The translations under genes and the position numbers were made by a program. Shown here piece after piece: positions 1 to 51,027 of a stretch of DNA of 64,000 nucleotides. Under the pieces are notes generated by a model that saw nothing but the letters and a program-made list of their open reading frames with translations, had not been told where the DNA came from and did no database searches. This stretch comes from an uncultured virus (IMG/VR IMGVR_UViG_3300042987_002221). Lineage: Duplodnaviria; Heunggongvirae; Uroviricota; Caudoviricetes. The stretch lies in the IMG/VR virus record IMGVR_UViG_3300042987_002221, positions 1-64,000 of that record; one strand, written 5' to 3'. Positions within the stretch are counted from its first letter, which is position 1, and every line of letters starts with the position of its first letter.

Positions 1-3000
1 CAATAGTTGGAACAAGATTCTCAAGCACTACTTTTGATTTTACTGACGATGAAAATCAGGATAATGACACTATTTTTGATAACAATGCAACACAATTTAT
101 AGATCAATATCCAAATGCAGGTGCAGTCTACATGTTTGATTATGTAAGTAATTACAATGAAAACATAAATGATCCTGGAAAATACATTTATGCACAAAGT
201 GTTAATTCAAATGATCAAACATATGGAAGTCAGCCTAAATATGGAACTGCACTTGACTTCAACAACTTTAACGTATTGATCGGAACACCAGATCAAGATG
301 ATGGTATCGTAACCGTCTATACTAATAGCACACGTTTATCAGATTGGCAAGTTTACAGACAGTCAAGCAAAGTTGTTGATATTGAAAAGATTGCAAACAT
401 CCAATTGTTTAGTGCTGAAACCAATAACACATTAGTTAATATGGATTATATTGATCCATTACAAGGAAAAATTCTTGGTGCGGCTAGACAAAATATCGAC
501 TTTATTAGTAACGCTGATCCAGCTGGATACAACTCTGGATCTAATGTTAATGGTAAGTTAGTTTGGGGTGCAACTCAAGTCGGACAAATATGGTTCAACA
601 CTTCAAATGTAAGATTCGTAAACTATCATCAAAACAATGATATTGCATACAATAGTGAATATTGGGCCACTTTATTCCCAGGTAGTGATGTAGCAGTTTA
701 TTCATGGATATCAAGTGATGTGTTGCCTATAAACTACACAGGTCCTGGAACAGTTTATGATTTTGATAGTTATTCAACTCAGTTCATAATAAATGATCAA
801 GGAACACTTACCCCAGTATATTTCTATTGGGTAAGAAATTCTAACATTATCTTCATAAATCAAGGTAAAACATTAGCAGATAGTATTATTGAACGTTATA
901 TAGCTTCCCCTAAGTTTTCTGGTATAAGCTATTTTGCTCCATTGTTACCTGATGTGTTTGCACTTTACAATTCAGGACCATATATCAATGCATCTGATAC
1001 TTTATTGAATATAGGATTTGCAACTGGAAATAGTGATGATTTGACTCACAATCAATATGATTTGATAAGATCAAATTATGCTGATGACTTTTTACCAGGC
1101 GTACCAGACACAGTAGATGGTGTTCCTATCTCATTGTATGACAGATTGTTAGATAGTTTTGCAGGTTTGGATGAAGAAGGAGAAAATGTACCTGATATTA
1201 ATTTACCTAAACTAGTTCAAACTGGTATACTTGTAAGACCCAGACAAAGCTTTTTCTACAATAGGTTATTGGCATTAAAAAATTATATTCAGTATACCAA
1301 CACAGTTTTATTACAGTTCCCAATAACTGAACTTAAGCAGTTTAGTTTATTGTTCACTGAGGGTGCGATCAATCCTTCAACAGTAGATAATCCAGAATGG
1401 CAAGGTGGTCCTTTACCATTCTATCGTACACAAGATTACTGGGAATATGCAAATTGGTGGGCAACTGGATACAGTAATAATACTAAAGCTGCATATCAGG
1501 TAACTTACTATGCTGATTTGTCAACATTAACTGTTCCTTTTGGCACAATCGTAAATGTCACACAAAACAATACAGTAGGTGTAGAGACATATATCTACAC
1601 AGAAGTAGGTTGGATAAGAATTGGATTGCAGAATGGAACTATACAATTTAGTTCTTTACTGTATGATTACAGTGCAGGAAAGATTGGATTCGGTGATAAT
1701 TTCTTTGATGCAACACCATTTGATTCTTTCCCATCACAAGAAACAAGAAATATCATTCGTGCGATCAACGAACAAATTTTCACTGATGAATTTTCTATCT
1801 TTAGAAACAAGAGTTTGATTTTACTTTTTGAGTATATTCAAAGTGAAACATTAGAAAATCAAAATTACTTGCCTTGGTTAAATAAAACTTCTCTTGTTGA
1901 TGTTTTCCATACAATCAGAGAACTTAGACCTATACAAAATTTACAAAATGACAATGATCAATTTTTGGAAGGATATATCAGAGAAGCTAAACCTTATCAC
2001 GTAGTTATTAAAGAATTCACATTTAGATACACAGGTACAGATGTATATGAAGGTAACATAACTGATTTTGATTTACCTGCACAATATAATACCTCTGTTG
2101 ATAACTTTGTTTCACCACAATTAGTTTACTCAAATCCTGATAATGTTTATACATATTCTACTACCAGTGATATTTGGAATGATCAAAACTATAATCAATG
2201 GTTTAGTAACAGAGGATTAAGTCTGTCTAGATATGAAAATGTTCCAATAACATATCTTAGTTCATATCTTGCACTGAATACAACTTCAATGTCGGTTAAA
2301 AACATTAACAGTTTTCCTGTAACGGGAACTGTAGTTATTGGTAACGAAATTATTCAGTACAATAATATTGACAGAGAATTGGGACTACTAACTGAACTAG
2401 TGAGAGGAGTAGATGGTACAGCTATTGAAACTCACATTCCAGGGGATCAAATTTATATTAACTTACCTGAAGTATTAGTAATGGAATCAGGTAGAAATTA
2501 TGTTGAAGTTCCTGATGTTTATGCATTGATAGACACTACTGTATTTCCTCCCCCAATAAAACCAGCGTTATTGCAAGCAATAATGAATAATGGTAGGGTA
2601 ATAGGTGTAGAAGTAATAGATCCTGGAAAAGGATATATGACTATTCCAGAAATAATAATTGAACCTTCAGTTACTTTAGGGTTTTCAACTACAAATGTGT
2701 CATTTGCTAATGATGATATTGCCTTCACAAGCTCAATTGATCTGGAAATTAATACATTACAGACAGGTGATTTGGTACAATATAAAGTTGTTTCTGGAAC
2801 AAATATTGGCAATTTGATAGATGGTCAATGGTATTACGTTAATGTTTTACAAATTACCCCAAATCTGAAAATAGGTTTATACAACAACATACATGATTGC
2901 TATAACAATTTCAACAGAATAGATTTGTTGAATTTAGGTACAGGTGAATATCAGTTATGTATGGGTGCGAAGGCTATTTCAGTTGTTACCTCTAGACCAA

Positions 3001-30938: not shown

Positions 30939-30939
30939 A

Positions 30940-32309: not shown

Positions 32310-32337
32310 TGATATCCTTCAAAAGTTACAAGTTTAT

Positions 32338-33432: not shown

Positions 33433-36400
33433 TTATGAAAATATTCCAAAAGTTGTGTTTCCGCCTGTACTAACCATAGTCCAACTACTTGTTCCTATTT
33501 GTACTGGACTTGACCTATTGATTGTAGTGTTGTCACCTATTTGTCCGAAATTATTACGTCCCCATGTAAACAAAGCATTGTCACTACGAATTGCCGCGGT
33601 AAAAGAAAATCCAGCATTCACACTTGTCCAACTACTTGTTCCGATTTGTATTGGACTTGATCTATTAAACGTAGTGTTGTCTCCTACTTGACCGAAAACG
33701 TTTTCTCCCCATATAAATAGCAGTGAATCACTTCGTATAGCGGCAGTATGGTTCTCTCCTGCGGTTTCGGACACCCAACTGTTTGTACCTACCTGTGCTG
33801 GACTAGAAACACTTGATAAAATGTTTTCACCGACCTGTACTGGACTTGATATATTGTTACCACTAGTTCCGATTCCCAATTGACCATATCCCCTAGCTCC
33901 CCAGGTAAATAAAATATTATCGCTACGAATTGCTGCTGTATGAGTTCCTCCGGCACTTACCGTAGTCCAACTACTTGTTCCTATTTGTACTGGACTTGAC
34001 CTGTTGGCTGTTGCATTGTCACCTAATTGTCCCGAAATCCACAAACCCCAAGTAAATAATGCGCCGTCTGATCTAATTGCAGCGGTGTGAGTGCCACCTG
34101 CACTCACTGATGTCCAACTACTGGTTCCTATTTGTACTGGACTTGACCTGTCAATAGTAGAATCATTTCCTAATCTACCTGAACTACCTACTCCCCATGT
34201 AAATAAAATATTGTCGTTGCGAATTGCTGCTGTATGAGTTCCTCCAGCACTTACTGTAATCCAACTGCCGGTACCTATTTGTACTGGACTTGACCTGTCA
34301 ATAGTAGAATCATTTCCTAATCTACCTGAACTACCTACTCCCCATGTAAATAAAATATTGTCGCTGCGAATTGCTGCTGTATGAGTTCCTCCAGCACTTA
34401 CCGTAATCCAACTGTCGATACCTATTTGTACTGGACTTGACCTGTTGGCTGTTGCATTGTCACCTAGTTGCCCAAATCTATTATATCCCCAAGTAAATAA
34501 AGCACCATCAATTCTTAATGCAGTAGTGTGTGCTGCTCCTGCACTTATAGTAGTCCAACTACTTGCACCAATTTGAATTGGACTTGATCTATTGGTTGTG
34601 CCGTCACCTAATCTACCTAATGTTCCTAAACCCCAAGTAAATAATCTCCCATCAACTCTAATAGCACCAGTATGAAATACACCAGCACCTACTGATGTCC
34701 AACTACTTGTGCCTATTTGTATTGGACTGGATCTGTCGGTTGTTGTTCCGTCACCTAATCTACCTGAACTACCTGCTCCCCAAGTAAATAAAGCTCCGTC
34801 ACTTCGTATGGCAGCAGTATGGACATTACCTGCACTTACTGTGGTCCAACTATAAACATCAGTACATGTGCCTAATTGTCCTGATGTATTTAATCCCCAG
34901 GTAAATAAAATATTGTCACTACGAATTGCTGCTGTATGAGAACCACCTCCGCTCACGCTAATCCAACTGCTTGTTCCTATTTGTACTGGACTTGATTTGT
35001 CCACAGTAGTTTCATCACCTAATCTACCGTTAGCTCCCCAACCCCAAGTAAATAGTTTTCTATTGGCTGCTATTGCAGCAGTATGATACTGTCCGGCGCT
35101 AACACTAATCCAACAGCTTGTGCCAACCTGTACTGGACTTGACCTGTTAACATTAGAATTATCTCCCAATCTACCATTTGCTCCGAATCCCCAAGTAAAT
35201 AATCTTCCTCCTAATAATATACCAACAGTATGCGCTTGTCCTACACTTACATTTGCCCAACTATTTGTACCAATTTGTACTGGGCTTGATCTGTTAGTTG
35301 TAGTATCATCGCCTAATTGTCCGTCAAGATTTCTTCCCCATGTAAATAGTAATCTATCATTACGAATTGCTGCAACATGACTTGGTCCTGCACTTACTGA
35401 AACCCAACTGTTTGTTCCTATTTGCGAAGGGGTTGATCTATTAACAGTTGTAAAACCTATTAGTACCGGACTTGATCTGTTAACAGTGTTTAAATCACCT
35501 AATCTACCGGATGATCCTAATCCCCATGTGTATACCGTGTTATTGTTAAGTAAGGCTAACGTGTGAAATCCACCTGAACTTGTTACGGTCCAATTACTGG
35601 ATCCTATTACTACAGGACTTGATCTATCAATAGTGGAGTTATTTCCTAACCTACCGTTAGTTCCTGTTCCCCATGCAAATATTAAATTTGCTGTTGTAAT
35701 TGCTGTTGCAAAATTTACTCCAGCACTAACCTTACACCATGTATTTGCACCAACTTGCACAGGGCTACATCTATCCCCGCTGCTTAATCCAATACCTAAT
35801 TGACCAAATGAGCCTGCCCCCCATGTAAATAGTAAATTATCCTGTCTTATTCCTGTGCTAAAAAAACTACCAAGGCTTGCGCTTATATCTACCCAATTAT
35901 TAGATCCTATTTGTACTGGACTTGACCTATTTATTACAGTACCATCACCTAATTGCCCTGAACCACCGTTCCCCCAAGCCCAAAGTTTATTTGTATCACT
36001 AATAGCCAGTATATGGTCTCTTCCTGCACTTACTTTTGTCCAATTATTGGTGCCGACTTGCACTGGACTTGATCTATTTGTAGTGTCACCTAAGCCTAAT
36101 TGTCCACTATCATTAGATCCCCAAGTAAATAATTTATTAGAAAGTAATCCTGCTGCTACTGTTCTTCCTGCACTTACAGATGTCCAACTACTTGTACCTA
36201 TTTGAATTGGACTTGATTTATCTACAGTAGTTCCATCACCTAATTGTCCTGATGCATTTGCTCCCCAAACAAATAATGATCCATCATTACGAACGGCTAA
36301 ATTCCAATTTAAACCGGCACTTACACTTGTCCAGCTACTAGCGCCAATTTGAATTGGGCTAGATTCACTGACTGTACTGGCGTTACCTAATGCACCACTT

Positions 36401-36759
36401 GTACCTACTCCCCAAGTAAATAGTGAACCATCGCTGCGTATTGCTGCTGAATGACAGTATCCTGCACTTATAGTATTCCAACTTGTAGGAATGCTTCCTA
36501 ATTTTCCATAATTATTTTGTCCCCATGCATAAAGGAAAAATGCATCGACCGAAGTCAATGATGCAAATAATGTACCGATGTCAGACCCTGTTTTTTTATA
36601 ATTTGTGGTTCCATATGGTAGACCACATGAAGCAGGTAGGTATAAATTAGATATATCATTGCCTGAAATTCTATAGCCTACGTCGGCAATTTTATTGGTA
36701 GTGCCTATAGGTGCAAATAAATTATCTAAATCAGTGCCATTTACTTTAAATCCGGCCAT
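33433..36759 (-). CDS. RCC1-repeat protein, 1108 aa, 21 blades (3 nested 7-bladed propellers)
   Basis: About 49-aa repeat WTSVSAG..HTAAIRSDG.LFTWG....GQLGD.TT.NRSSPVQIGTSS; N-terminal ~75 aa homologous to the larger paralog. Confidence 0.9.
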   Translation of the reverse strand: MAGFKVNGTDLDNLFAPIGTTNKIADVGYRISGNDISNLYLPASCGLPYGTTNYKKTGSDIGTLFASLTSVDAFFLYAWGQNNYGKLGSIPTSWNTISAGYCHSAAIRSDGSLFTWGVGTSGALGNASTVSESSPIQIGASSWTSVSAGLNWNLAVRNDGSLFVWGANASGQLGDGTTVDKSSPIQIGTSSWTSVSAGRTVAAGLLSNKLFTWGSNDSGQLGLGDTTNRSSPVQVGTNNWTKVSAGRDHILAISDTNKLWAWGNGGSGQLGDGTVINRSSPVQIGSNNWVDISASLGSFFSTGIRQDNLLFTWGAGSFGQLGIGLSSGDRCSPVQVGANTWCKVSAGVNFATAITTANLIFAWGTGTNGRLGNNSTIDRSSPVVIGSSNWTVTSSGGFHTLALLNNNTVYTWGLGSSGRLGDLNTVNRSSPVLIGFTTVNRSTPSQIGTNSWVSVSAGPSHVAAIRNDRLLFTWGRNLDGQLGDDTTTNRSSPVQIGTNSWANVSVGQAHTVGILLGGRLFTWGFGANGRLGDNSNVNRSSPVQVGTSCWISVSAGQYHTAAIAANRKLFTWGWGANGRLGDETTVDKSSPVQIGTSSWISVSGGGSHTAAIRSDNILFTWGLNTSGQLGTCTDVYSWTTVSAGNVHTAAIRSDGALFTWGAGSSGRLGDGTTTDRSSPIQIGTSSWTSVGAGVFHTGAIRVDGRLFTWGLGTLGRLGDGTTNRSSPIQIGASSWTTISAGAAHTTALRIDGALFTWGYNRFGQLGDNATANRSSPVQIGIDSWITVSAGGTHTAAIRSDNILFTWGVGSSGRLGNDSTIDRSSPVQIGTGSWITVSAGGTHTAAIRNDNILFTWGVGSSGRLGNDSTIDRSSPVQIGTSSWTSVSAGGTHTAAIRSDGALFTWGLWISGQLGDNATANRSSPVQIGTSSWTTVSAGGTHTAAIRSDNILFTWGARGYGQLGIGTSGNNISSPVQVGENILSSVSSPAQVGTNSWVSETAGENHTAAIRSDSLLFIWGENVFGQVGDNTTFNRSSPIQIGTSSWTSVNAGFSFTAAIRSDNALFTWGRNNFGQIGDNTTINRSSPVQIGTSSWTMVSTGGNTTFGIFS
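34141..34410. repeat. Near-identical 147-nt tandem blade duplication within the RCC1 gene
   Basis: ACTTGACCTGTCAATAGTAGAATCATTTCCTAATCTACCTGAACTACCTACTCCCCATGTAAATAAAATATTGTCG... starts at both 34141 and 34288. Confidence 0.8.
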
Positions 36760-36844
36760 ATTTTAACCTTATGTATAATTTTTATATATTTATTGTATTT
36801 AGTTTTTTTGGGTCATTATAGTTTTGTACGAAGTTCAAATTTTG

Positions 36845-39800
36845 TTACGCCTTTAATAATCCTAAAGTAAATGTGTCACCTGCACCTATCGCAGACCAAC
36901 TATTACTACCTATTGATACTGGACTTGATCTATCTATGGTATTTTGGGTACCTAAACGTCCTGAACTACCTGCTCCCCAAGCAAACAAAAGACCGTCTGT
37001 TCTAATTGCAGCAGTATGTGCTGTGCCTGCACTAATTGCGGTCCAACTACTGGATCCAATTTGTACTGGACTTGATCTGTCAATTGTTGTTCCGTCACCT
37101 AATCTACCTGATGTACCTGCTCCCCATGTAAAAAGTGTATAGTCACTACGTATTGCAGCGGTGTGTGAAGCATTACTATTAACTTGACGCCAACTATTAA
37201 AATTAACAAGTATTGGTGATGATGATTGGCTTATTCCGCCTAAAACAGTGAGTGTTGAAGTAGTCTGTGTGACAGTTGAGTTATTTCCTATTTGTCCTGA
37301 CCCTCCTCCCCCCCACATATATAAAAGTGAATTTGATGTGATTCCGCCATTACTTTGAATTACAGTCCAACTTTGTGTACCTATTTGTACTGGACTTGAA
37401 CGGGTATTAGTTGTTCCATCTCCCCAATAATCGCTCCCCCATCCATATATCAAATTAGTGTTATTAATTGCCCAGGTACTACCTCCAAATGATATGTTTA
37501 CCGCTGTCCAACTATTTGTTCCTATCTGCACAGGACTAGAGTTTGTAGTTCTTGTATTATCTCCTATTTGTCCTGATGTATTTGATCCCCAGGTAAATAA
37601 TGCACCATCAGCGCGAATTGCACCGGAGTTATAACCTCCTGCACTAATTGCGGTCCAACTACTGGATCCAATTTGCACTGGACTGTTTTTGTTTATTGTT
37701 GTTCCGTCACCTAATTGTCCTGATGTATTTGATCCCCAGGTAAATAACGCCCCGTCACTTCGCAAAGCAATTGCATGTCTGCGTCCGGCTGAAACTTGAG
37801 TCCAACTGCTGGTTCCTATGTTCACTGGGCTAGTGTCAAATGCTACTCCTGAACCTTGACCTAATTGCCCTACACTATTATCACCCCAACTAAAAAGTCT
37901 CCCATCAACGCGAATAGCAAAACTTGTAAGTTCGGTTGCTGCTGCAATTGCAATCCAACTGCTGGTTCCTATTTGTACTGGACTAGAATAATCAATTTGG
38001 TTACCTTGTCCCAATGCTCCGTTAGTTCCTCTACCCCATGCAAATAATCGCCCGTCGATACGTATAGCTAAACTAACATTGGTTCCTTGACTAATAGCAG
38101 TCCAACTGCTTGTTCCGATTTGTACTGGACTCGACCTATTGATTTTGGTGTTGTCACCTACTTGTCCAAAATCATTAAGGCCCCAACTAAACAATAAATC
38201 GTCATTACGTATCGCTAATACTGTGTTAACGACAACAGATAAATTCTTCCAAGTTAGAGGTGCAGTATTTCCAAATTGTCCATATCTATTACTTCCCCAT
38301 GTATATAAATATCCATCACTTCGTATAGCATGTGCATTTATGTAACCTGCAGTTACAGCGGTCCAACTGCTTGAACCAATTTGTACTGGACTACTACGGT
38401 TAACCGTAGTTCCGTCTCCCAAACGTCCGCTACTGTTTAATCCCCATGTAAATAATGAGCCATTATTTTTGATTGCAGCAGTAAAGGGGCCATTTTTACC
38501 GGCACTGACACTAGTCCAACTGCTTGTTCCTAATTGAACTGGACTTGATCTGTTTATTGTAGTATCATCACCTATTTGCCCTGAACTGTTACTTCCCCAT
38601 ACAAATAATGCATTGTCACTTCTTATTGCCGCAGTATGTGATGCACCTGCACTTATACTAGTCCAACTACTTGATCCAATTTGTATAGGGCTTGATCTGG
38701 ACAATATTGTGCCGTCCCCAAGTTGACCAAGATTATTACTCCCCCATGCAAATAATAATTTATCACTTCTTATTGCCATAGAATGAGACGCACCTGCACT
38801 TACGGATGTCCAACTACTTGTGCCTATTTGATTAGGGGATGAAGTATCAATTGGTTGTCCTCCTACTTGTACTGGACTTGATCTATTGATTGTAGTGTTG
38901 TCACCTATTTGTCCTGATGCATTTGCTCCCCATGTAAATAATAAGCTATCTTGTTTTATTGCTGCTGTGTGAGTAATACCTGCACTTACACTAGTCCAAC
39001 TGCTTGTTCCAATTTGTACTGGACTTGATCTGGTTATAGTGGTATTGTCACCTATTTGTCCTGATGAATTGAATCCCCAGGTAAATAATGAACCATCAAT
39101 TCTTATTGCTGCTGTGTGAGTACCACCTGCATTTACGGTAGTCCAGCTACTTGTTCCAATTTGCACTGGACTTGATCTATTAATGGTGTCGTTTGTCCCT
39201 AATCTACCCGAACTGCCTGCACCCCAAACAAATAAACCATTATCTTGTCTTATTGCAGCAGTGTGCGTTGCACCTGCACTTACAGATGTCCAACTGCTAT
39301 TTCCAATTTGAACTGGATTAGAAAAAGAAGTTATTAGTATACCTCCTAATACAACTGGACTTGATCTAGCGATAGTTGTATTATCACCTAATTGTCCTGA
39401 AGTTCCTAATCCCCAAGCATATAATGTGTTATCAATTTCTAGTCCTAAAGTTGAATTACCACCACTACTAATTGTAGTCCAACTACTTGTTCCTATCTGT
39501 ACCGGACTTGATCTGTTAATAGTAGTATTATCACCCAATTGACCTGATGAATTTAATCCCCAGGTAAATAAAGCACCATCACTTCTTATTGCAGAGGTAT
39601 GAGTGAAGCCAGCACTTACAGATGTCCAACTGCTTGTTCCAATTTGTACTGGGCTTGATTTACTAATAGTTGTGCCATCTCCTAAACGTCCTGAACTACC
39701 TAAACCCCAAGTAAATAATGCACTGTCTGTTCTAATTGCTGCTGCAAAACAACATCCCGCACTTACTGATGTCCAACTGCTGGTTCCAACTTGAACTGGA

Positions 39801-42800
39801 GAAAAAACCTGTACTGGATTTATATTACCTAAAATTAATGGTGTTGAGTTGCTTATATTGGTGTTATTACCTATTCTTCCTGAACTTCCTTCACCCCAAA
39901 TATATGCTACAGCGGTACTATCAATTGCTGACATAAAATCTTGTCCTGCACTTACTGATGTCCAACTACTTGTTCCAATTTGCACTGGACTTGATCTGTT
40001 AATAGTAGTATTATCACCCAATTGACCTGATGAATTGAATCCCCAGGTAAATAAAGCACCATCACTTCTTATTGCAGCAGGATTTGATGAATTTTCACCT
40101 GCGCTTACAAATGTCCAGCTGCTTGATCCTATTTGGGCGGGGATTGATCTATCTATGGTATTTCCATCACCTAATCTACCGTTAGCTCCTAAACCCCAAG
40201 TAAAAAGTAAATTGTTTGAATTTATAGCTGCTGCAAAATTATATCCTGCACTTATTGCTATCCAACTACTAGTGCCTACTTGCACTGGAGAAGAAACTAG
40301 CAATGGGTTGATATTGCCTAATACTACTGGACTTGATCTAGTTATATTAGTGTTATCACCTATTCTACCTGAAGTACCATATCCCCAAAGATATGCAACA
40401 GAGCTGTTATCAATAGCCGACATAGATGCAGAACCTGCGCTTATACTAGTCCAACTTCCGGTACCTATTTGTACTGGACTTGATCTTCTAACTGTCGTAC
40501 CGTCTCCTAATGCTCCTAAACCATTACAGCCCCATGTAAATAGTAAACCATCATTACGAATTGCTGAAGTAAAATTAAGTACTCCTGCACTTACACTAGT
40601 CCAACTACAATTGCCAATTTGCACTGGAATGGATCGATTTATAGTTGAATTATCTCCTAGTTGACCGAAAAGATTATGTCCCCAGGTGAATAAGCCTCCA
40701 TCGTTACGGATAGCAGCAGTGAACAGATCCCCGCCTGCACTTACTGTTGTCCAACTACTTGATCCAACTTGCACAGGTGATGATCTTGGTTCTACAGCAA
40801 TACTGCCCACTAACACCAATGACGATCTACTTGTAGTTGAGTTGTTGCCTAATTGACCAGTATTTGCCGCACCTGTAATTTGTAAATCAGATGATAATAG
40901 TCCTATTACTCCTGTATTATTTCCCCCTGCGCTTACTTTAGTCCAAGTACTAGCACCGATTAGTACTGGACTTGATCTGTTAACTGAAGTGCCGTCTCCT
41001 AATTGTCCGTCAAGTCCTCTTCCCCATGTAAATAAAGTATTATTAATTGTTATTGCAGCAGTATGCGCTTCTCCTGCGCTTACTGCTGTCCAGCTATTTG
41101 TTCCTACTTGTACTGGGCTTGACCTAGCAATAATTGAATTATCACCTAATCTACCACTTGTTCCATATCCCCAAGTAAATAATGAACCACCTTGCCTTAT
41201 TGCTACTACATGTGCTTGTCCTGCGCTTACGGCTGTCCAACTACTCGTTCCAACTTGCACTGGACTGGATCTATTTAGTGTACCGCCATCACCCAATCTA
41301 CCATTTGAACCTGCTCCCCAAGTAAATAATCTACCGTCGTCATTTCTTATCGCAGCAGTCATTTGAAGTCCTGCACTTATAGTAGTCCAACTACTTGTGC
41401 CAATTTGCACTGGGCTTGATTTACTTGTTGTAGTACCGTCGCCCATTTGCCCGAAATTATTTAATCCCCAAGTAAATAACAAACTATCCGATTTGGTAGC
41501 TACTGTATGAGAACCACCTGCAGCTACGGCAGTCCAACTACTTGTGCCGATTTGTACTGGGCTTGATCTATTAATAGTTGTGCTATCACCTAATCTACCT
41601 GCACCACCTGCTCCCCAAGTAAATAAAGCACCGTCTGTTCTAATTGCGGCTGTGTGTGCAACTCCGGCACTTACACTGGTCCAACTGCTTGTTCCAATTT
41701 GCACTGGACTGGATCTATTTATTGTAGTACCATCACCCAATTGTCCATAGTTATTTAATCCCCAAGCATATAATATGTTAGTATTTGTTATAGCCGTAAC
41801 ATGAGAACGACCAAAAGAAACTGCATTCCAGCTTAATACTGCTGTTACTTCTCCTAATTGTCCTGATGCATTATCCCCCCATGTAAATAATGCACCATCC
41901 TGTCTTATTGCTGCGGTATTTCCATTTCCTGTACTAACAGTGGTCCAGCTACTTGTTCCAAGTTGTACTGGACTGGATCTATTTAGTGTACCGCCATCAC
42001 CCAATCTACCTGATGTTCCGAATCCCCAAATGAATAAAGAACCATCCTGTCTTATTGCTGCTGTGCTATAGGTTCCTGCACTGATACTAGTCCAACTGCT
42101 TGTTCCTACCTGTACTGGACTTGATCTGTTTACGGTTGTGTTGTCTCCTAATTGCCCTACACTATTAGAACCCCAAGTAAATAATCTTCCATCACTTCTT
42201 ATAGCTGTGCTATGTGAAAATCCTGCACTTACTGATGTCCAGCTGCTTACACCTACTTGTACTGGGCTTGACCTATCAAAAGTGTCTCCGCTTCCTAATC
42301 TACCTGCACCACCTGATCCCCACGTAAACAAAAGACCATCTGATCTAATAGCTAATACTTGTCCATTTCCTGATGCTATCGCGTTCCAACTTTGAACAGC
42401 AGTTAACCATCCTAATTGTCCGCAACCTCCAGTTCCCCATGTAAATAGTCTTCCGTCATTTCTAGTGGCTGCTGTAAAGTTATTTCCTGCGCTAACGGTA
42501 GTCCAACTACTTGTTCCAATTTGTACTGGACTAGACCTATTAACGGTATTACTGTCTCCTAATCTACCTGTTGCACCGCATCCCCAAGTGAATATTGAAC
42601 CATCTAATCTTACTGCCGCAGTATGAAAACATCCTGCACTTACTGTTGTCCAACTACTAGTTCCTATTTGTACCGGACTTGATCTATCAATTGTAGTATT
42701 GTTTCCCAAACGACCTGCACCACCTGCTCCCCAAGTAAATAATCTTCCGTCACTTCGTATTGCAGCAACGTGAGTGGCCCCTGCATCTACACTAGTCCAA

Positions 42801-45800
42801 CTACTTGTTCCTATTTGTACCGGACTTGATCTATCAATAATGTCATTTGTCCCTAATCTACCCGAACTACCTGCTCCCCAAGTAAACAAACCACCATCTG
42901 ATCTAATAGCGGCGACATTCCCTACTCCGGATGAAATTGTTGTCCAACTTTGAACAGTGGTTAGCCAACCTAAATTTCCTCCTCTTCCATATCCCCATGT
43001 AAACAATGCACCATCTAAACGTATTGCAGCGGTATTATAAAATCCTGCACTTACACTTGTCCAACTGCTTGTACCAATTTGTACTGGACTAAACTTATTA
43101 ATAGTAGTTCCATCACCTAATCCACCACATAGACCGCATCCCCAAGTAAATAATGAACTACCATTTCTGATTGCAGCAGTATGTGCAAAACCAGCACTCA
43201 CACTTGTCCAACTACTAGTTCCAATTTGCACGGGACTTGATCTATTAATGGAACCGTCATCACCTAATTGTCCATCAAGACCTCTTCCCCAAGTAAATAA
43301 TGATCCATCCTGTCTTATTGCTGCTGTGTGTGCATTTCCGGCACTTACACTAGTCCAACTGCTCGTTCCTATTTGTACTGGGCTTGATCTATCAATTGTA
43401 GTATTATCACCTAATCTACCACTTGTTCCTGCTCCCCAAGTAAACAAACCACCGTCTGTTCTAATTGCAGCAGAATGTGATGCACCTGATGCAATTGATG
43501 TCCAACTTTGAATAAATTCAGTTCTTCCTAATTGTCCAAAATTATTAAGGCCCCAACCAAATAAAGCTCCATCATTCCTTATGGCCATCATATATGGACC
43601 GCCATCACTTGAATTTACAGATGTCCAACTACTTGTTCCAATTTGGACTGGACTTGATCTGGTTATAGTGGCATTGTCACCCAATTGACCTGATGCATTT
43701 GCTCCCCATGTAAATAATGAGCCATTACTTCTGATTGCCGCAGTTTGACTATTTCCTGCACTTACTGATGTCCAACTACTAGTTCCTATTTGTACTGGAC
43801 TTGATCTATTAATGGAACCGTTATCACCTAATTGTCCAACATTATTAAGGCCCCATATAAATAATGCACCATCTTGTCTTATTCCTGCTGTATAGTAAGT
43901 TCCTGCACTAACGGCAGTCCAACTACTTATACCTACTTGAGTTGGCACAGATACGGACGTAGTTATAGCACCTATTTGTGCTGGTATTGATCTAGATATG
44001 GTATTTCCGTCACCTAATAAACCGTTAGCTCCTAAACCCCAAGTAAACAAAGTCTTATCAAGGTTAATTGCCAATGTTTGAAAACAAAATCCTGCATTTA
44101 CTGTTGTCCAACTAGCTGTACCTATTTGTACTGGACTTGATCTATTAGTTCTTGTACCATCACCCAATGAACCCCGAATATTATATCCCCAAGTAAATAA
44201 TATACCATCATTTCTAATTGCCGCTGTAACTACATTACCTGCACTTACAGTAGTCCAACTACTTGTTCCAATTTGAATTGGACTTGATTTATCTACAGTA
44301 GTTCCATCACCTAATTGTCCTGTTGCATTACTCCCCCAGGTAAATAATGAATCACCTTGTCTTATTGCAGCGGTATGAAAGCGTCCTGCACTTACTGTTG
44401 TCCAACTACTAGTTCCTATTTGTACCGGGCTTGATCTATCAATGGTGTCATTTGTCCCTAATCTACCCGAAGTACCTAAACCCCAAGTAAATAATGCACC
44501 ATCTTGTCTTATTGCTGTTGAATGTAAGTATCCTGCACTTATTGTTGTCCAGCTGCTTGTTCCAATTTGTACTGGGATTGAATTATTGCAAAGGTTGCAT
44601 CCTACTAAAGTTGGATTACTTCTATTTACAATTGAACTTGTTCCTAATCTACCACTTGTTCCTGCTCCCCATGTATATAAAAAATTATTCCCGTCAATAG
44701 CTCCGGCATGATTAGTTCCTCCTCCCAAAATAGTCCAACTACTTGTACCAATTTGCACCGGACTGGATCTATCAAGAGTGGTTCCGTCACCTAATCTACC
44801 TGCACTACCTGAACCCCAGCTAAATAAAAGTCCGTCATTTCTTTTTGCAATAGTGCTAACGTTTGCGCTAAATATCGCAGTCCAACTATTTGTTCCAATT
44901 TGCACTGGACTTGATCTGTTATCAGTGTCATTTAGCCCTAATTGTCCATAAATATTGCTCCCCCAGGTAAATAAAGCGCCATCACTTCGTATAGCAGCAC
45001 TATGAGACTGCCCTTCACTTATAACTGTCCAACTGCTTGTTCCTATTTGTACTGGACTAGATTGAAGGCCAATGGAATTGTTTCCTAATTGGCCAGTGGC
45101 GTTGAATCCCCAAGTAAACAATCCGCCATCATTTCTAATTGCCATTGTAGTTGCATTACCTGCACTTACACTTGTCCAACTGCTTGTACCGATTTGTACT
45201 GGACTTGATCTACTAGTTACAGTTCCGTCACCTAATTGCCCTACATTGTTTCGCCCCCATGTGAATAAAGTGTTATCACTGCGTATTGCTACTGCATGTG
45301 TGTTTCCTGAAGCAACAGTAGTCCAGCTACTTGTACCAATTTGAACTGGACTTGATCTGTCAATCGTTGATTGGTCTCCCACCTGTCCATGATTATTTCT
45401 ACCCCAAACAAAAAGTGAATTATCTTGTCTTATTGCTAATGTAGTATATGCACCTGAAGCAACAAAAATCCAACTACTTGTGCCAAGTTGAACCGGAATT
45501 GATCTGTTTATATTGTCATTTAGCCCTAATTGTCCAAAACTATTGCTCCCCCAGGTAAATAAAGCGCCATCACTTCTGATTGCAACGGAATGAGTTGAAC
45601 TTGAACCTGAGCCAATTGTACTCCAGCTATATAAAGGTGTCAGTTGTGTAGTTTGTCCTGATTCATTTCCTCCCCAAGTAAATAATGCACTATCAGTTCG
45701 TAATGCGATAGTATGAGAAAGACCCATGCTTACTGCTGTCCAACTGCTTGTTCCTATTTGAACTGGACTTGATCTATCAATTGTTGTTCCGTCCCCTAAT

Positions 45801-46432
45801 CTACCTGAACTACCTGCGCCCCAAGTAAACAATGCACCGTCATTTCTTATTGCAGCAGTTTGTTGTGGTCCTGCACTTACTGATGTCCAACTACTTGTGC
45901 CTATTTGCACAGGACTGGATTTGTCAATAGTCGAACCATCACCTAATGCTCCTTGAGTATTAACTCCCCATGTAAATAAAATACCATCACTTCTTATAGC
46001 AGCAGTATGAAAACCCGAGCTTATTGATGTCCAACTATTAATTAGTCCTAATTGACCTGATGCATTTCCTCCCCAAGTAAATAATCTACCATCACTTCTT
46101 ATAGCAGTTGAATGATTTGTTCCGGCACTAACTATATTCCAACTATATATAGGAGTTGTTATTGCGGTTTGCCCGTCAGAATTACCTCCCCATGCATATA
46201 AAAATAAGGTAGCTGGACCCAATGAACCATAAGCAGCAAATAATGTTCCTATATCACTGTTGTTTTTAAAAATATTGGTTGTGCCGTAAGGCGTTCCGAA
46301 CTCTGCACCTGCATATAAGTTAGATATATCTGACCCTGAAGATAAAAATCCAGTGTCTGCAATTTTGGTACAGGAACCTATTGGAGCAAATAAAGTGTCT
46401 AAATCTATACCATTAACTAAAAATCCTGACAT
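36845..46432 (-). CDS. Giant RCC1-repeat protein, 3195 aa, 63 blades (9 nested 7-bladed propellers)
   Basis: Same repeat as the paralog; AATAAATA on the minus strand at 46440-46447. Confidence 0.9.
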   Translation of the reverse strand: MSGFLVNGIDLDTLFAPIGSCTKIADTGFLSSGSDISNLYAGAEFGTPYGTTNIFKNNSDIGTLFAAYGSLGPATLFLYAWGGNSDGQTAITTPIYSWNIVSAGTNHSTAIRSDGRLFTWGGNASGQLGLINSWTSISSGFHTAAIRSDGILFTWGVNTQGALGDGSTIDKSSPVQIGTSSWTSVSAGPQQTAAIRNDGALFTWGAGSSGRLGDGTTIDRSSPVQIGTSSWTAVSMGLSHTIALRTDSALFTWGGNESGQTTQLTPLYSWSTIGSGSSSTHSVAIRSDGALFTWGSNSFGQLGLNDNINRSIPVQLGTSSWIFVASGAYTTLAIRQDNSLFVWGRNNHGQVGDQSTIDRSSPVQIGTSSWTTVASGNTHAVAIRSDNTLFTWGRNNVGQLGDGTVTSRSSPVQIGTSSWTSVSAGNATTMAIRNDGGLFTWGFNATGQLGNNSIGLQSSPVQIGTSSWTVISEGQSHSAAIRSDGALFTWGSNIYGQLGLNDTDNRSSPVQIGTNSWTAIFSANVSTIAKRNDGLLFSWGSGSAGRLGDGTTLDRSSPVQIGTSSWTILGGGTNHAGAIDGNNFLYTWGAGTSGRLGTSSIVNRSNPTLVGCNLCNNSIPVQIGTSSWTTISAGYLHSTAIRQDGALFTWGLGTSGRLGTNDTIDRSSPVQIGTSSWTTVSAGRFHTAAIRQGDSLFTWGSNATGQLGDGTTVDKSSPIQIGTSSWTTVSAGNVVTAAIRNDGILFTWGYNIRGSLGDGTRTNRSSPVQIGTASWTTVNAGFCFQTLAINLDKTLFTWGLGANGLLGDGNTISRSIPAQIGAITTSVSVPTQVGISSWTAVSAGTYYTAGIRQDGALFIWGLNNVGQLGDNGSINRSSPVQIGTSSWTSVSAGNSQTAAIRSNGSLFTWGANASGQLGDNATITRSSPVQIGTSSWTSVNSSDGGPYMMAIRNDGALFGWGLNNFGQLGRTEFIQSWTSIASGASHSAAIRTDGGLFTWGAGTSGRLGDNTTIDRSSPVQIGTSSWTSVSAGNAHTAAIRQDGSLFTWGRGLDGQLGDDGSINRSSPVQIGTSSWTSVSAGFAHTAAIRNGSSLFTWGCGLCGGLGDGTTINKFSPVQIGTSSWTSVSAGFYNTAAIRLDGALFTWGYGRGGNLGWLTTVQSWTTISSGVGNVAAIRSDGGLFTWGAGSSGRLGTNDIIDRSSPVQIGTSSWTSVDAGATHVAAIRSDGRLFTWGAGGAGRLGNNTTIDRSSPVQIGTSSWTTVSAGCFHTAAVRLDGSIFTWGCGATGRLGDSNTVNRSSPVQIGTSSWTTVSAGNNFTAATRNDGRLFTWGTGGCGQLGWLTAVQSWNAIASGNGQVLAIRSDGLLFTWGSGGAGRLGSGDTFDRSSPVQVGVSSWTSVSAGFSHSTAIRSDGRLFTWGSNSVGQLGDNTTVNRSSPVQVGTSSWTSISAGTYSTAAIRQDGSLFIWGFGTSGRLGDGGTLNRSSPVQLGTSSWTTVSTGNGNTAAIRQDGALFTWGDNASGQLGEVTAVLSWNAVSFGRSHVTAITNTNILYAWGLNNYGQLGDGTTINRSSPVQIGTSSWTSVSAGVAHTAAIRTDGALFTWGAGGAGRLGDSTTINRSSPVQIGTSSWTAVAAGGSHTVATKSDSLLFTWGLNNFGQMGDGTTTSKSSPVQIGTSSWTTISAGLQMTAAIRNDDGRLFTWGAGSNGRLGDGGTLNRSSPVQVGTSSWTAVSAGQAHVVAIRQGGSLFTWGYGTSGRLGDNSIIARSSPVQVGTNSWTAVSAGEAHTAAITINNTLFTWGRGLDGQLGDGTSVNRSSPVLIGASTWTKVSAGGNNTGVIGLLSSDLQITGAANTGQLGNNSTTSRSSLVLVGSIAVEPRSSPVQVGSSSWTTVSAGGDLFTAAIRNDGGLFTWGHNLFGQLGDNSTINRSIPVQIGNCSWTSVSAGVLNFTSAIRNDGLLFTWGCNGLGALGDGTTVRRSSPVQIGTGSWTSISAGSASMSAIDNSSVAYLWGYGTSGRIGDNTNITRSSPVVLGNINPLLVSSPVQVGTSSWIAISAGYNFAAAINSNNLLFTWGLGANGRLGDGNTIDRSIPAQIGSSSWTFVSAGENSSNPAAIRSDGALFTWGFNSSGQLGDNTTINRSSPVQIGTSSWTSVSAGQDFMSAIDSTAVAYIWGEGSSGRIGNNTNISNSTPLILGNINPVQVFSPVQVGTSSWTSVSAGCCFAAAIRTDSALFTWGLGSSGRLGDGTTISKSSPVQIGTSSWTSVSAGFTHTSAIRSDGALFTWGLNSSGQLGDNTTINRSSPVQIGTSSWTTISSGGNSTLGLEIDNTLYAWGLGTSGQLGDNTTIARSSPVVLGGILITSFSNPVQIGNSSWTSVSAGATHTAAIRQDNGLFVWGAGSSGRLGTNDTINRSSPVQIGTSSWTTVNAGGTHTAAIRIDGSLFTWGFNSSGQIGDNTTITRSSPVQIGTSSWTSVSAGITHTAAIKQDSLLFTWGANASGQIGDNTTINRSSPVQVGGQPIDTSSPNQIGTSSWTSVSAGASHSMAIRSDKLLFAWGSNNLGQLGDGTILSRSSPIQIGSSSWTSISAGASHTAAIRSDNALFVWGSNSSGQIGDDTTINRSSPVQLGTSSWTSVSAGKNGPFTAAIKNNGSLFTWGLNSSGRLGDGTTVNRSSPVQIGSSSWTAVTAGYINAHAIRSDGYLYTWGSNRYGQFGNTAPLTWKNLSVVVNTVLAIRNDDLLFSWGLNDFGQVGDNTKINRSSPVQIGTSSWTAISQGTNVSLAIRIDGRLFAWGRGTNGALGQGNQIDYSSPVQIGTSSWIAIAAATELTSFAIRVDGRLFSWGDNSVGQLGQGSGVAFDTSPVNIGTSSWTQVSAGRRHAIALRSDGALFTWGSNTSGQLGDGTTINKNSPVQIGSSSWTAISAGGYNSGAIRADGALFTWGSNTSGQIGDNTRTTNSSPVQIGTNSWTAVNISFGGSTWAINNTNLIYGWGSDYWGDGTTNTRSSPVQIGTQSWTVIQSNGGITSNSLLYMWGGGGSGQIGNNSTVTQTTSTLTVLGGISQSSSPILVNFNSWRQVNSNASHTAAIRSDYTLFTWGAGTSGRLGDGTTIDRSSPVQIGSSSWTAISAGTAHTAAIRTDGLLFAWGAGSSGRLGTQNTIDRSSPVSIGSNSWSAIGAGDTFTLGLLKA

Positions 46433-46481
46433 AATGTTCTATTTATTTCATTGAGGACTGATCTTAACCAATTGTTATCCT

Positions 46482-46516
46482 AAAAATATCACAACTAAAA
46501 CTGTTAGTGATATTTT
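46482..46516 (-). terminator. Possible terminator hairpin
   Basis: AAAATATCAC...GTGATATTTT inverted repeat downstream of the chaperone gene; AT-rich and weak. Confidence 0.35.
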
Positions 46517-46530
46517 GAAAAAACATTATG

Positions 46531-47013
46531 TTAGCCTTGAAAGGTTGGCCATACTAAATTACTTAAATCTTCCTGCAAAGTAATGTCTGCTAAAGCTTGC
46601 ATATAAGTATCTAAATTTTCTAAAGTGTCAGTTGGTGTCAAACCCATTCTGACTTGACGTTCATAACGTGTATACCGCCATTCAAAATCACTCATTAATT
46701 TATCTCTTTGAATACGAATGGGGACTAATAATTCTTCACGGGTTGGAGGTACATAATGAGGAATCAAAATTAATTCTCTATGTTCATAAACTTCACCATT
46801 TTGTACGCTATATGTAGGAAAATCACTCATTCTATATAATGAAGGATCAAAACTTGTGGTATCCCTAATAATTCTTACAAACCCGTTTTCACGCATAAAG
46901 GCTTCATCATTGCTACAACGTGTATTAAAATTATTGATACCATTCCAAAATTTTGGAATACTGTCATAAACACCTTTAACTTCATTATTAACCAAATTTG
47001 CATAAACTGTCAT
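46531..47013 (-). CDS. Phage tail/fibre assembly chaperone-like protein
   Basis: C-terminal IRIQRDKLM...YMQALADIT....NLVWPT motif; ATG at 47013 with GGAG ribosome-binding site. Confidence 0.7.
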   Translation of the reverse strand: MTVYANLVNNEVKGVYDSIPKFWNGINNFNTRCSNDEAFMRENGFVRIIRDTTSFDPSLYRMSDFPTYSVQNGEVYEHRELILIPHYVPPTREELLVPIRIQRDKLMSDFEWRYTRYERQVRMGLTPTDTLENLDTYMQALADITLQEDLSNLVWPTFQG

Positions 47014-47041
47014 TTTATTCTCCGAGTTGTAAAGTTTTAAG

Positions 47042-47061
47042 TATTTATGCATTAATAAATA
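47042..47061. promoter_or_regulatory. Back-to-back late promoter motifs
   Basis: CATAAATA on minus (47042-47049) and AATAAATA on plus (47054-47061) at the strand switch. Confidence 0.55.
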
Positions 47062-47069
47062 AAAAAGTT

Positions 47070-47321
47070 ATGATTACCAGTACAAATGAAGCACTAGAAA
47101 AACTTACCCAACTTAAAAACTATATGAAAACGGTTAGATATAACCATGATTTAAATAAATTGCTGAAAAATATTGAAGGCATGATAACTGAATTATCCAA
47201 AAAAGAGGTGTTAGCTAGACAAACCAAAAAAGTTTCTATACTAGAAATTCCATTAAAAAATCTTAATGAATCTGTTGACAATTTTGAGAAACTGCTTATA
47301 ATAGCCAAACTCCTCGACTAA
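47070..47321 (+). CDS. Hypothetical helical protein
   Basis: ATG at 47070 follows the late motif; the longer TTG start overlaps the divergent gene. Confidence 0.6.
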   Translation: MITSTNEALEKLTQLKNYMKTVRYNHDLNKLLKNIEGMITELSKKEVLARQTKKVSILEIPLKNLNESVDNFEKLLIIAKLLD

Positions 47322-47337
47322 AGATAAATAAATAGTT

Positions 47338-47520
47338 ATGAAAATCAATGAAGTAAGTCAACCCTCTGACAAAAAACTATTTGAGTCAATTGACCATGAT
47401 AATAAAACCGGCTTCGCAACCGAAGATTTGGTAAAAATTGTCAGAACAGAAAAGAACAATGAATGGTCAAAGCCAATGACTATGGAAGAATTGTTTGAAG
47501 AAATGGATTCATGGGAATAA
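47338..47520 (+). CDS. Small acidic protein, putative antitoxin
   Basis: Directly upstream of the YafQ-like gene; acidic C-terminus TMEELFEEMDSWE resembles DinJ/RelB C-termini. Confidence 0.45.
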   Translation: MKINEVSQPSDKKLFESIDHDNKTGFATEDLVKIVRTEKNNEWSKPMTMEELFEEMDSWE

Positions 47521-47523
47521 TCA

Positions 47524-47958
47524 GTGCCAGCTAATATTCAAAATCCACGAAACTTACCGGCAAACACGCAAGCTCAACAACCGGCAAATGTTAGATTCCG
47601 CCGTAGTCCAGAGTACAAAGAAACATATCTTGTGAAAGTAAACCCATACGAATCGGTAAGAAACAAATTTCGTGAGTTTATGGAATTAAAACGCAATGAT
47701 CCAAACCAAGCTTTTGGCAAAAGCGACAAACATTTTTTGGGAGACGGGTTTTTCACTCAGCAGGTGCCTGGGTTAAAACATGCTCATATAACCCAAGACC
47801 TTAGTATAGTCTATAAAATATCTGGGAAAAATCCAACTGAAATTTATCTTTATGGATTTTACACTCATGATGAATTGGGCACTGGGCAACCTCCCAATAT
47901 AAGAAGACAATCAAGCATTGCTAAAAGTTTTAGGTCATACACCTTTACAGAAGAATAA
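47524..47958 (+). CDS. RelE/YafQ-family mRNA interferase-like protein
   Basis: RRSPEYKE, KHAHITQDLSIVY and YGFYTHDEL follow the YafQ pattern (H(I)..D.L.IY ... G(S/T)H.EL). Confidence 0.65.
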   Translation: MPANIQNPRNLPANTQAQQPANVRFRRSPEYKETYLVKVNPYESVRNKFREFMELKRNDPNQAFGKSDKHFLGDGFFTQQVPGLKHAHITQDLSIVYKISGKNPTEIYLYGFYTHDELGTGQPPNIRRQSSIAKSFRSYTFTEE

Positions 47959-47959
47959 T

Positions 47960-47988
47960 TTGACAAATAATCCATAGTATCATATACT
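47960..47988 (+). promoter_or_regulatory. Sigma70-type early promoter
   Basis: TTGACA-17 nt-TATACT. Confidence 0.8.
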
Positions 47989-48004
47989 TCAAGCTTGAAG
48001 GGAA

Positions 48005-48430
48005 ATGATAATGGAAATCACGATTGACGGCAGCACACGAAACAAGAAGTTGGTAAACGCAGTTTTGCCTTCTATGATTCGCCAACTTAAGTTGGAAAAT
48101 TGCCGTAAGGGCCTTTTAATTCGCATCTATAATGAATGCGATCAAGAAGCACACGGGGTCACCCATGATTTCACTAATCTTACAAATTGTTATGTTGTGG
48201 TTGTAAAGCCCCAACGTAATGTTTTTCAACTTGGTATTACCTTGGCTCATGAGTTGGTCCATGTAAAGCAAATGGCAAAGGGCCAACTCAAGACCGACGT
48301 TTACGGTAATAACTATTGGATGGGCAAGAAGTACAAGGCCTCCACTAAGTACTATGACCGTCCTTGGGAAATTGCAGCATTTGCACAACAGGAACTACTG
48401 TTGCGGCGTGCTGTTGAAGAATGTGCTTGA
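48005..48430 (+). CDS. HExxH zinc metallopeptidase-like protein
   Basis: LAHELVHVKQ ... PWEIAAF. Confidence 0.75.
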   Translation: MIMEITIDGSTRNKKLVNAVLPSMIRQLKLENCRKGLLIRIYNECDQEAHGVTHDFTNLTNCYVVVVKPQRNVFQLGITLAHELVHVKQMAKGQLKTDVYGNNYWMGKKYKASTKYYDRPWEIAAFAQQELLLRRAVEECA

Positions 48431-48455
48431 CAAATAATCCAATCAAGCATATAGT
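48427..48455 (+). promoter_or_regulatory. Sigma70-type early promoter
   Basis: TTGACA-17 nt-TATAGT; shares TTGACAAATAATCCA with the promoter at 47960. Confidence 0.8.
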
Positions 48456-48491
48456 AGCATCTGTTTCAACAACTTTTTCAACGGAGAATAT

Positions 48492-49595: not shown

Positions 49596-49629
49596 GGTTG
49601 CGATTGCTAGGGAGGTAAAACTCCCTTTC

Positions 49630-49657
49630 GAGGGCGGGTTCGCCCGCTCTCTTTTTT
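49630..49657 (+). terminator. Rho-independent terminator (TTCG loop), preceded by a second hairpin at 49609-49626
   Basis: GAGGGCGGG-TTCG-CCCGCTCTC-TTTTTT. Confidence 0.8.
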
Positions 49658-49678
49658 CTATAACTGTATGGAGCAAAT

Positions 49679-50968: not shown

Positions 50969-50984
50969 ATTCTAAAGTTTAGAG

Positions 50985-51016
50985 GGTAGTACACTAACCG
51001 TGTACTACCTTTTTTT
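50985..51016 (+). terminator. Rho-independent terminator
   Basis: GGTAGTACAC-TAACC-GTGTACTACC-TTTTTTT. Confidence 0.8.
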
Positions 51017-51027
51017 AAGGTAACATT

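Follow-up and report, generated by a model that had tools for sequence, protein, structure and literature searches.

The locus described here raises the question of how a single viral polypeptide with 63 RCC1-type blades is organised, as a string of propellers placed end to end or as propellers inserted into one another. It lies in a window of 64,000 nucleotides (positions 1 to 64,000 of the uncultured-virus record IMGVR_UViG_3300042987_002221 in IMG/VR), where an intact open reading frame (ORF) at 36845..46432 on the minus strand encodes a protein of 3,195 residues, P0001. Pfam finds RCC1-type families alone in P0001, with PF25390 at 2041 bits (cut-off 150) and PF00415 at 1653 bits in 52 stretches, and the protein is made of repeats of about 50 residues that match the RCC1 profile, as in RCC1-like domains; by its sequence it belongs to the RCC1-like family. 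We consider it quite probable that this single chain folds into nine seven-bladed RCC1-type propellers that are joined by domain insertion and not end to end. Support for the nested arrangement is good at one insertion, and at the others the sequence strongly implies it.

The bracket structure is visible from the lengths of the repeat units. Cutting P0001 at every 'WG' gave 63 pieces, 35 of them with the standard length of exactly 49 residues. Eight short pieces (35–41 residues) are without the stretch 'DGTTxxRSSPVQIGTS', and the same tail is doubled at eight places, i.e. in seven pieces of 62–63 residues and within one piece of 114 residues, which also conceals a blade without WG. Two hidden Markov models (HMMs) were then built from P0001, one for a 33-residue 'head' (three strands and the GQLG turn) and one for a 16-residue 'tail'. 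The head HMM matched P0001 64 times, corresponding to 63 full heads and a C-terminal part-head. The gap to the following head is 3–6 residues (an open bracket) after heads 1, 2, 5, 19, 23, 27, 31, and 54, and 29–30 residues (a close bracket) after heads 12, 16, 38, 41, 44, 47, 50, and 61. The sole further outlier is a gap of 10 residues at head 60, a degenerate blade reading 'GWGSDYWG', where the automatic gap-length parser called one false open that was corrected by eye. The stack parse gave nine levels, A to I, with exactly seven heads in each and all brackets balanced, which yields A{B{C{D},E{F{G{H}}}},I}, a tree with six levels and two branch points. The parts of the gene are as follows.

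36845..46432, minus strand: whole gene of the 3,195-residue RCC1-repeat protein P0001, with 63 blades in nine putatively nested propellers (ORF, Pfam, and parse).
46217..46432, minus strand: N-terminal module of about 72 residues, not RCC1 and without a Pfam family, matching phrog_11610 at positions 3–71 of 219 (E 2.7e-5).
46163..46216, minus strand: N-terminal part-blade of root A (third head strand and turn), residues 73–90, followed by the first open (head HMM positions 20–32).
38861..46162, minus strand: propeller B with its contents, residues 91–2524; its own blades are residues 91–129, 822–969, and 2364–2524 (parse).
43970..46045, minus strand: propeller C enclosing D, with arms at residues 130–262 and 612–821 (parse).
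44600..45646, minus strand: propeller D, seven contiguous blades, residues 263–611 (parse).
39344..43525, minus strand: propeller E enclosing F, with arms at residues 970–1155 and 2203–2363 (parse).
39827..42967, minus strand: propeller F enclosing G, with arms at residues 1156–1341 and 2040–2202 (parse).
40316..42409, minus strand: propeller G enclosing H, the modelled sub-tree, with arms at residues 1342–1527 and 1877–2039 (model and two-chain run).
40805..41851, minus strand: propeller H, the innermost, seven contiguous blades, residues 1528–1876, the seventh without WG (parse and model).
38270..38860, minus strand: middle arm of root A, the spare strand after B closes and four blades, residues 2525–2721 (parse).
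37238..38269, minus strand: propeller I, seven contiguous blades, residues 2722–3065, blade 6 degenerate (parse).
36848..37237, minus strand: C-terminal arm of root A, a spare strand, two blades, and a part-blade that would pair with the N-terminal part-blade, residues 3066–3195 (the last head covers HMM positions 1–13 only).

An earlier reading of the locus, made from the sequence only, had described eight broken blades, eight orphan tails, and 63 blades with seven at every level, all of which were confirmed by WG cutting, the head HMM, and the stack parse, and its spans for propellers B to I agree with ours to the codon at 16 of 16 end coordinates. It had further placed all insertions in the same loop. 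This holds for the place within the blade (8/8) but not for the blade number, as only five of the eight insertions follow blade 4. In the architecture we propose, a blade unit would comprise three head strands and a fourth, tail strand, with the GQLG-type turn between them. At eight points the chain would exit a blade after the turn, build a whole seven-bladed propeller whose ends meet, and then come back to supply the fourth strand that the host blade still lacks, while root A would be closed by the N- and C-terminal part-blades. The term nested refers to the order along the chain, and in space the propellers would probably lie side by side in a branched cluster.

To judge how often such a pattern would arise by chance, eight opens and eight closes were placed at random on 62 boundaries. 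The brackets balanced in 222,810 of 2,000,000 placements and held seven blades at every level in none of the 2,000,000; the exact chance is 115,607,310 valid trees in 3.5e18 placements, or 3.3e-11. These figures bear on the competing explanation that P0001 is a plain string, in which every seven consecutive blades form one propeller and differences in loop length account for the short and long units. Tandem arrays are the usual propeller design, all blades are about 55% alike, so that any seven could pack, and two metagenomic relatives, P0203 and P0218, keep all their tails and have no missing or doubled strand under the gap rule. A plain string would nevertheless leave groups of one to four blades between the joints of P0001 (1, 1, 3, 4, 3, 4, 4, 4, 3, 3, 3, 3, 4, and 2 in chain order), together with blades of three or five strands, and the seven at all levels would then be a matter of the chance given above. 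The blade sequences point the same way. When contiguous propellers were paired with interrupted ones under the nested labels, identity was 0.550 at the same blade position and 0.537 otherwise, a gap reached by none of 2,000 within-propeller shuffles, whereas running blade numbers taken modulo 7 carried no positional signal (0.5388 versus 0.5386).

The two explanations also differ in where a closed ring should lie in a predicted structure. We modelled the sub-tree G{H} (residues 1342–2039, 14 blades), which holds one of the eight insertions, the others being placed by sequence logic. AlphaFold2 was run with an alignment, A1, of 14 rows, comprising the target, three collinear stretches of the two RCC1 proteins of the window, and 10 stretches of relatives selected for a BLAST alignment that crosses both joints with few gaps. 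Sub-stretches were used since local MAFFT with full-length relatives spread the query over 926–1,245 residues each and was not collinear; a search for related loci in viral contigs gave 14 loci, none cleanly collinear with G{H}, and these did not enter A1. The resulting model has a mean predicted local distance difference test score (pLDDT) of 90.1, with both arms of G at 84–96 and the two joints low at 71 and 69. In model numbering, each unit has four strands, except that there is no fourth strand between 174–178 and the first strand of the insert at 194–199, and that two fourth strands, 528–533 and 542–547, follow one another at the other joint. The predicted strand order thus runs from 174–178 through the insert (194–533) to the spare strand (542–547), i.e. 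the host blade is left after three strands.

Structural comparison of the model with solved proteins returned 11 UVR8 entries with Z scores of 54.0–56.1 over 341–353 residues and root-mean-square deviations (rmsd) of 1.2–1.8 Å. Nine of the 11 alignments run from 189–192 to 535–540, which is the bracketed insert H, and the other two cover 175..536 and 189..596. The best match, 4dnv_A on model residues 189..536, has a Z score of 56.1 and an rmsd of 1.3 Å over 346 of 370 residues at 30% identity. As a plain string of propellers would place the full ring on model residues 1–350, the predicted closed ring at about 189–536, and not on the first seven consecutive blades, argues for nesting. In view of this model, together with the parse and the blade labels, we regard the plain string as highly improbable. 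UBR5 chains, in turn, aligned to the model over the span 1..669, with 253–254 residues, Z scores of 16.8–17.1, and an rmsd of 3.9 Å, which is more residues than either arm of G has alone.

The closure of blades 1–4 of G with blades 5–7, which the sequence-only reading had singled out as a point to be checked by prediction, was addressed by giving the two arms (model residues 1–188 and 536–698), with their alignment rows, to the predictor as separate chains. The runs scored 0.89, 0.90, and 0.89, whereas the highest of three controls came to 0.02. Of the solved complexes, 116 of 157 attain the mark of this procedure, as do 2 of 215 mismatched pairs, counts that are only rough here because a custom alignment was used. 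Contact agreement was at least 96% and partner pLDDT at least 91. Contacts were predicted at both seams, between 171–188 and 538–564 and between 5–18 and 655–698. The best contact pairs join the strand before the insert (174–177) with the spare strand after it (545–548), and the first strands of G (5–18) touch its last blade and final strand (655–698). Both seams are therefore predicted to close. The predicted two-chain result shows that the arms of G fit each other, and fit does not prove closure. In all, seven blades close into one propeller for H in the predicted model, the arms of G are predicted to close likewise, and in the other seven propellers the blades were counted by sequence.

Several points weigh against the nested architecture. 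The positional signal under nested labels is small, at 1.4 points of identity, though it is in the right direction. The AlphaFold2 fold of G{H} from the single sequence was unusable (pLDDT 47.2), and the rows of A1 were chosen for collinearity at both joints, which may bias the model towards treating the joints alike. With a predicted template modelling score (pTM) of only 0.59, the model leaves the mutual placement of the propellers undefined. The structural match list is dominated by H, so that G is barely tested by it, and some of H may be included in the UBR5 alignment to 1..669. The pass of the two-chain run may stem from a resemblance to solved propellers, in which case any split of four and three blades could pass. 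The ring closure of G within the full model is read from pLDDT, the two-chain run, and the UBR5 alignment taken together, and depths three to six follow from bracket logic, with one insertion of the eight modelled.

We next consider how such a tree could have arisen. Propellers E, F, and G are mutually closest in both arms, with 64–66% identity overall, 67–70% in the N-terminal arms, and 60–63% in the C-terminal arms. In a DNA self-match, the region that encodes them shows offsets of 561 bases on one side and 486 bases on the other. This likeness in both arms, with self-match offsets on both sides, indicates that the two arms of a propeller were copied together; because E, F, and G are copies of each other in both arms, the tree probably grew by repeated insertion. 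At each round, a copy of a propeller would have entered the same loop, the one that follows blade 4. Such a repetitive gene in a metagenome record of an uncultured virus could in principle be an artefact of assembly. In contrast to what an artefact would give, the 9.6-kb frame is open, long stretches of the DNA copies within the genes share only 64–75% identity, and the longest run repeated exactly in 33433–46432 measures 90 bases; a count of seven blades per level would not survive scrambling of the array, and independent relatives share the grammar. We therefore find an assembly artefact scarcely credible. The 90-base repeat likely sits in blades 17–19 of the downstream paralog, which are nearly identical in protein.

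This paralog follows P0001 on the same strand.

33433..36759, minus strand: paralog of 1,108 residues with the same N-terminal module and 21 blades in three propellers, parsed as 1(7)4(7)2 plus a part-blade, where figures count blades and parentheses mark opens and closes.

Its N-terminal 70-residue module is 65% identical to that of P0001 and matches phrog_11610 with an E value of 1e-7. The layout of the paralog is that of root A with its two inserts, for which the chance is 51 in 29,070 (1.8e-3). Propeller 'i' of the paralog is 65–67% identical to B, C, E, and F of P0001, closer than most P0001 propellers are to one another, and its C-terminal arm is 75% identical to that of B. This closeness suggests, at the level of sequence, that propellers have been exchanged between the two genes. 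The presence of two such proteins also allows an explanation in which the grammar is real, yet some levels are completed in trans, between copies of P0001 or between P0001 and the paralog, and the oligomer is the functional unit. The roots of both RCC1 proteins begin and end with part-blades of the same kind that could pair in this way, and phage fibres are usually oligomeric. The brackets, on the other hand, balance within each protein with seven blades at every level and none left over, and the two-chain run predicts closure between the two arms of G. Completion in trans is thus improbable in our view, and we retain closure within the single chain.

The grammar could also be sought in relatives, as the sequence-only reading had proposed. 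Searches of metagenomic proteins returned 2,323 giant relatives of 1,757–5,592 residues at E <= 0.001 among 7,996 scored, 7,276 of 8,000 scored in a class of 609–1,939 residues, and 7,996 of 8,000 scored in a class of 383–1,222 residues. Their lengths cluster near 1,100, 1,450, and 1,800 residues, and none is named beyond 'RCC1 family protein'. Applied to 339 relatives, the gap parser gave 315 clean innermost levels, with seven blades in 111, one blade in 91, and at most 30 for any other value; among levels with children, seven blades was the mode (29/82). We think that the 91 one-blade levels are mostly parser errors like that at head 60. The gap-length parser is crude and fails on other joint styles, with many closes and few opens in P0002–P0007 and no brackets in P0203 and P0217.

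Sevens were nevertheless recovered in a range of proteins besides the paralog. As far as these comparisons and the model of G{H} go, the nested arrangement withstands the refuting outcomes that the sequence-only reading had named. Four relatives with the same N-terminal module were read in detail; P0123 reads 1(7)2(3(7)4)5 as parsed, and after correction of the parser by eye P0155 reads 1(7)2(7)4, P0127 reads 1(4(4(7)3)3)6, and P0299 reads 1(7)6. P0002, a metagenomic protein of 4,384 residues, has other joints, with a linker of about 20 residues containing 'Q..YL' on entry and 'PVFIR' on exit; by these motifs seven blades were found in 7 of 7 closed levels, and 34 root heads were left unparsed. 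Tree shapes vary among relatives, e.g. 1(4(7)3)6 as well as the shape of P0123. In P0203 and P0218 the tails behind heads 2, 5, 12, and 16 are unusual, a pattern that would agree with 2(3(7)4)5. Many giant relatives (P0015, P0020, P0022–P0039, and others) have gaps of about 230–260 residues at bracket positions, and these proteins carry Laminin_G-type domains (PF13385, PF02210). From these gaps and domains, it seems that the same loop can take up foreign binding domains in addition to propellers. In the IMG/VR viral contigs L005, L006, and L008, adjacent ORFs of about 376–397 residues each encode about one RCC1 propeller, and this is a split form of the family, with one propeller per gene.

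What the protein does was approached through its N-terminal module and its neighbours. The match to phrog_11610, a phage family of unknown function, is confined to the first 70 residues of P0001. A search of 1.84 billion cluster representatives gave 181 proteins that begin with the module, most of them about 200 residues long. A domain scan covered 26 of the best 150 of these 181, and 19 of the 26 match phrog_11610. Behind the module they carry RCC1, SBBP, Rax2, or Kelch-type propellers, Laminin_G_3, a Gly-rich domain, or a Hoc-like match; the carrier with Laminin_G_3 has a baseplate-wedge-like match and the carrier with the Gly-rich domain a tail-fibre-assembly match. Phage attachment proteins are usually built as a conserved head with exchangeable distal binding modules, and the same combination of a conserved N-terminal module and exchangeable distal domains is found here, from which anchoring to the virion may be inferred. 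Immediately upstream of P0001 lies one further gene of interest.

46531..47052, minus strand: gene with a C-terminus like that of tail-fibre assembly chaperones (PF16778 at 30.8 bits, cut-off 26.6; phrog_4912 'tail fiber assembly', E 2.3e-5).

Its true start is likely, judging by the sequence, an ATG near 47012 that is preceded by GGAG. Because the module is shared with phage proteins bearing other binding domains and the upstream gene resembles tail-fibre assembly genes, we propose that P0001 is most likely a multivalent virion-borne adhesin, attached to the particle through the 70-residue module and directed at the host surface. It weighs against this proposal that virion presence and host binding are both inferred from genomic context.

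The place on the particle is a separate matter. The propellers may be nested as proposed in a protein that is not tail-borne, such as a capsid decoration, a particle adhesin, or, outside the virion, a decoy or a modifier of the host surface that acts together with the downstream sugar enzymes. The module carrier P0370 has a Hoc-like head-decoration match, phrog_11610 is without known function, and no tail or baseplate gene directly adjoins the P0001 gene except the chaperone-like one. On the opposite strand, at a distance of 8 kb, there is a gp9/10-like gene. Directly downstream of the two RCC1 genes, at 19172–33390 on the minus strand, is a run of co-oriented enzyme genes encoding a sulfotransferase, at least two 2OG-Fe(II) oxygenases, several methyltransferases, an aminotransferase, a nucleotide-sugar epimerase, and a kinase/cytidylyltransferase-like protein, with a weak GT9 match. 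From its gene content this run looks like a cluster for glycan or small-molecule modification, whose target may be the RCC1 proteins or the host surface. A tail location is favoured, in contrast, by the upstream gene, which matches tail-fibre assembly families in two libraries, by the module carriers P0381 and P0375, which match baseplate wedge subunit and tail-fibre assembly families, and by the relative of P0001 in phage BUCT-ZZ01, whose gene comes second after one annotated as tail fibre. We consider a nested protein that is not tail-borne rather unlikely; attachment to the tail itself stands at about even odds, with a capsid or non-virion role below that. A late promoter had also been suggested from the sequence, and this was not borne out, as a T4-type search gave only near-matches to TATAAATA upstream of the P0001 and chaperone-like genes.

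The source record comprises 121,204 bases, with a CheckV completeness of 35%. Its large terminase is closest to those of PA5oct-like jumbo Pseudomonas phages (50% identity), so that the source virus is probably a jumbo myovirus and not clearly a cyanophage. The nearest named relatives of P0001 itself, however, are smaller proteins of freshwater Synechococcus phages (BUCT-ZZ01 at 47% and S-SRM01 at 38%). A megablast search of 46400–58000 against phage records gave no match. Elsewhere in the window, a giant ORF of 2,707 residues (132–8255, plus strand), open at the window start, has no Pfam family but a match to phrog_10938 'virion structural protein', and after it comes a protein of 412 residues (9039–10277, plus strand) with a Peptidase_G2 autoproteolytic chaperone domain, as found at the C-termini of fibres and spikes. 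At 48492–50968 on the plus strand, an AAA ATPase of the MoxR/CobS-like type adjoins a DUF2201 metallopeptidase-VWA protein, and thymidylate synthase and dihydrofolate reductase lie beyond this pair.

Domain insertion is normally one level deep, and the consequences of the proposed architecture follow from this. The bracket grammar makes the domain tree legible from sequence alone. If P0001 folds as predicted, it would offer a natural branched, tree-like single chain for work on protein folding and design, and its outer propellers would close only after 300 to 2,400 residues of insert have been made. Beyond the single protein, we hold evenly poised the proposal that phages grow a branched, self-similar protein by repeatedly dropping a propeller copy into a fixed loop, which would yield a rigid tree of many binding faces that is quickly reshaped between relatives to retune host binding. 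If true, recursive self-insertion of a domain at a fixed loop would be an evolutionary growth rule distinct from tandem repetition and would have produced the deepest domain nesting known in any protein; it would also be a candidate explanation for the multivalent host-binding structures of large phages, with thousands of differently shaped relatives to compare.

Finally, we compared P0001 with known systems. The roles known for single RCC1-like proteins, i.e. Ran exchange factor, UV-B sensor, and lactamase inhibitor, have no evident bearing on P0001. UVR8, the RCC1-like domains of HERC2, RCC1, RPGR, and BLIP-II share its repeat family and fold and are single domains, and a search of solved structures with the paralog sequence gave 31 distinct sequences with chains of 370–536 residues, each matched over about one propeller or less. 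P0001 would not be classed with RCC1 proper, the Ran exchange factor, because it presumably comes from a bacterial phage without Ran. The sequence-only reading knew of no description of the nested design. In the open literature, with subscription journals outside the search, we found no paper on propellers nested in propellers of the RCC1 family, so that this part stands for the RCC1 design, but a shallower chain of propellers in propellers is in print, the triple WD40 propeller of yeast Trm734, nested in one line according to PMC6847430. As described there, the chain begins with strand d7 of BPC, forms BPA as far as c7, builds the whole of BPB, returns to d7 of BPA, and completes the rest of BPC. 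Trm734 resembles P0001 in that the host blade is left after three strands and receives its last strand after the insert, as seen in the model of G{H}. It differs in having WD40 blades, three propellers, no branching, and a cellular scaffold role, whereas P0001 has RCC1 blades, nine propellers, six levels, and two branch points; unlike in Trm734 as described, the inserts of P0001 copy the host propeller and the shape of the tree varies between relatives. Since the Pfam families found in P0001 are all of RCC1 type, with no WD40 repeats and no kinship to Trm734 or DDB1, the resemblance concerns design and not descent. In the portion of the literature accessible to us, the three propellers of Trm734 were the deepest propeller example found in print, compared to nine copies and six levels in P0001.

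The second comparison is with human UBR5, whose RCC1-like seven-bladed propeller is described (10.1101/2023.06.06.543850, also PMC10830417) as discontinuous in sequence. In one of its blades three strands are present and an insertion of about 270 residues comes next; the first blade begins at the N-terminus, and strands from the C-terminus complete it. P0001 has the same kind of discontinuous RCC1-like propeller with whole domains in blade loops. The inserts of UBR5 are other domains (UBA and a double small beta-barrel) at one level in a eukaryotic ubiquitin ligase, whereas those of P0001 are propellers; neither a HECT nor a UBR domain was found in P0001 by Pfam, and it is not a whole-length homologue of UBR5, the resemblance being limited to one domain. 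By analogy with these two systems, P0001 would thus combine RCC1 blades like those of UBR5 with propeller inserts like those of Trm734.

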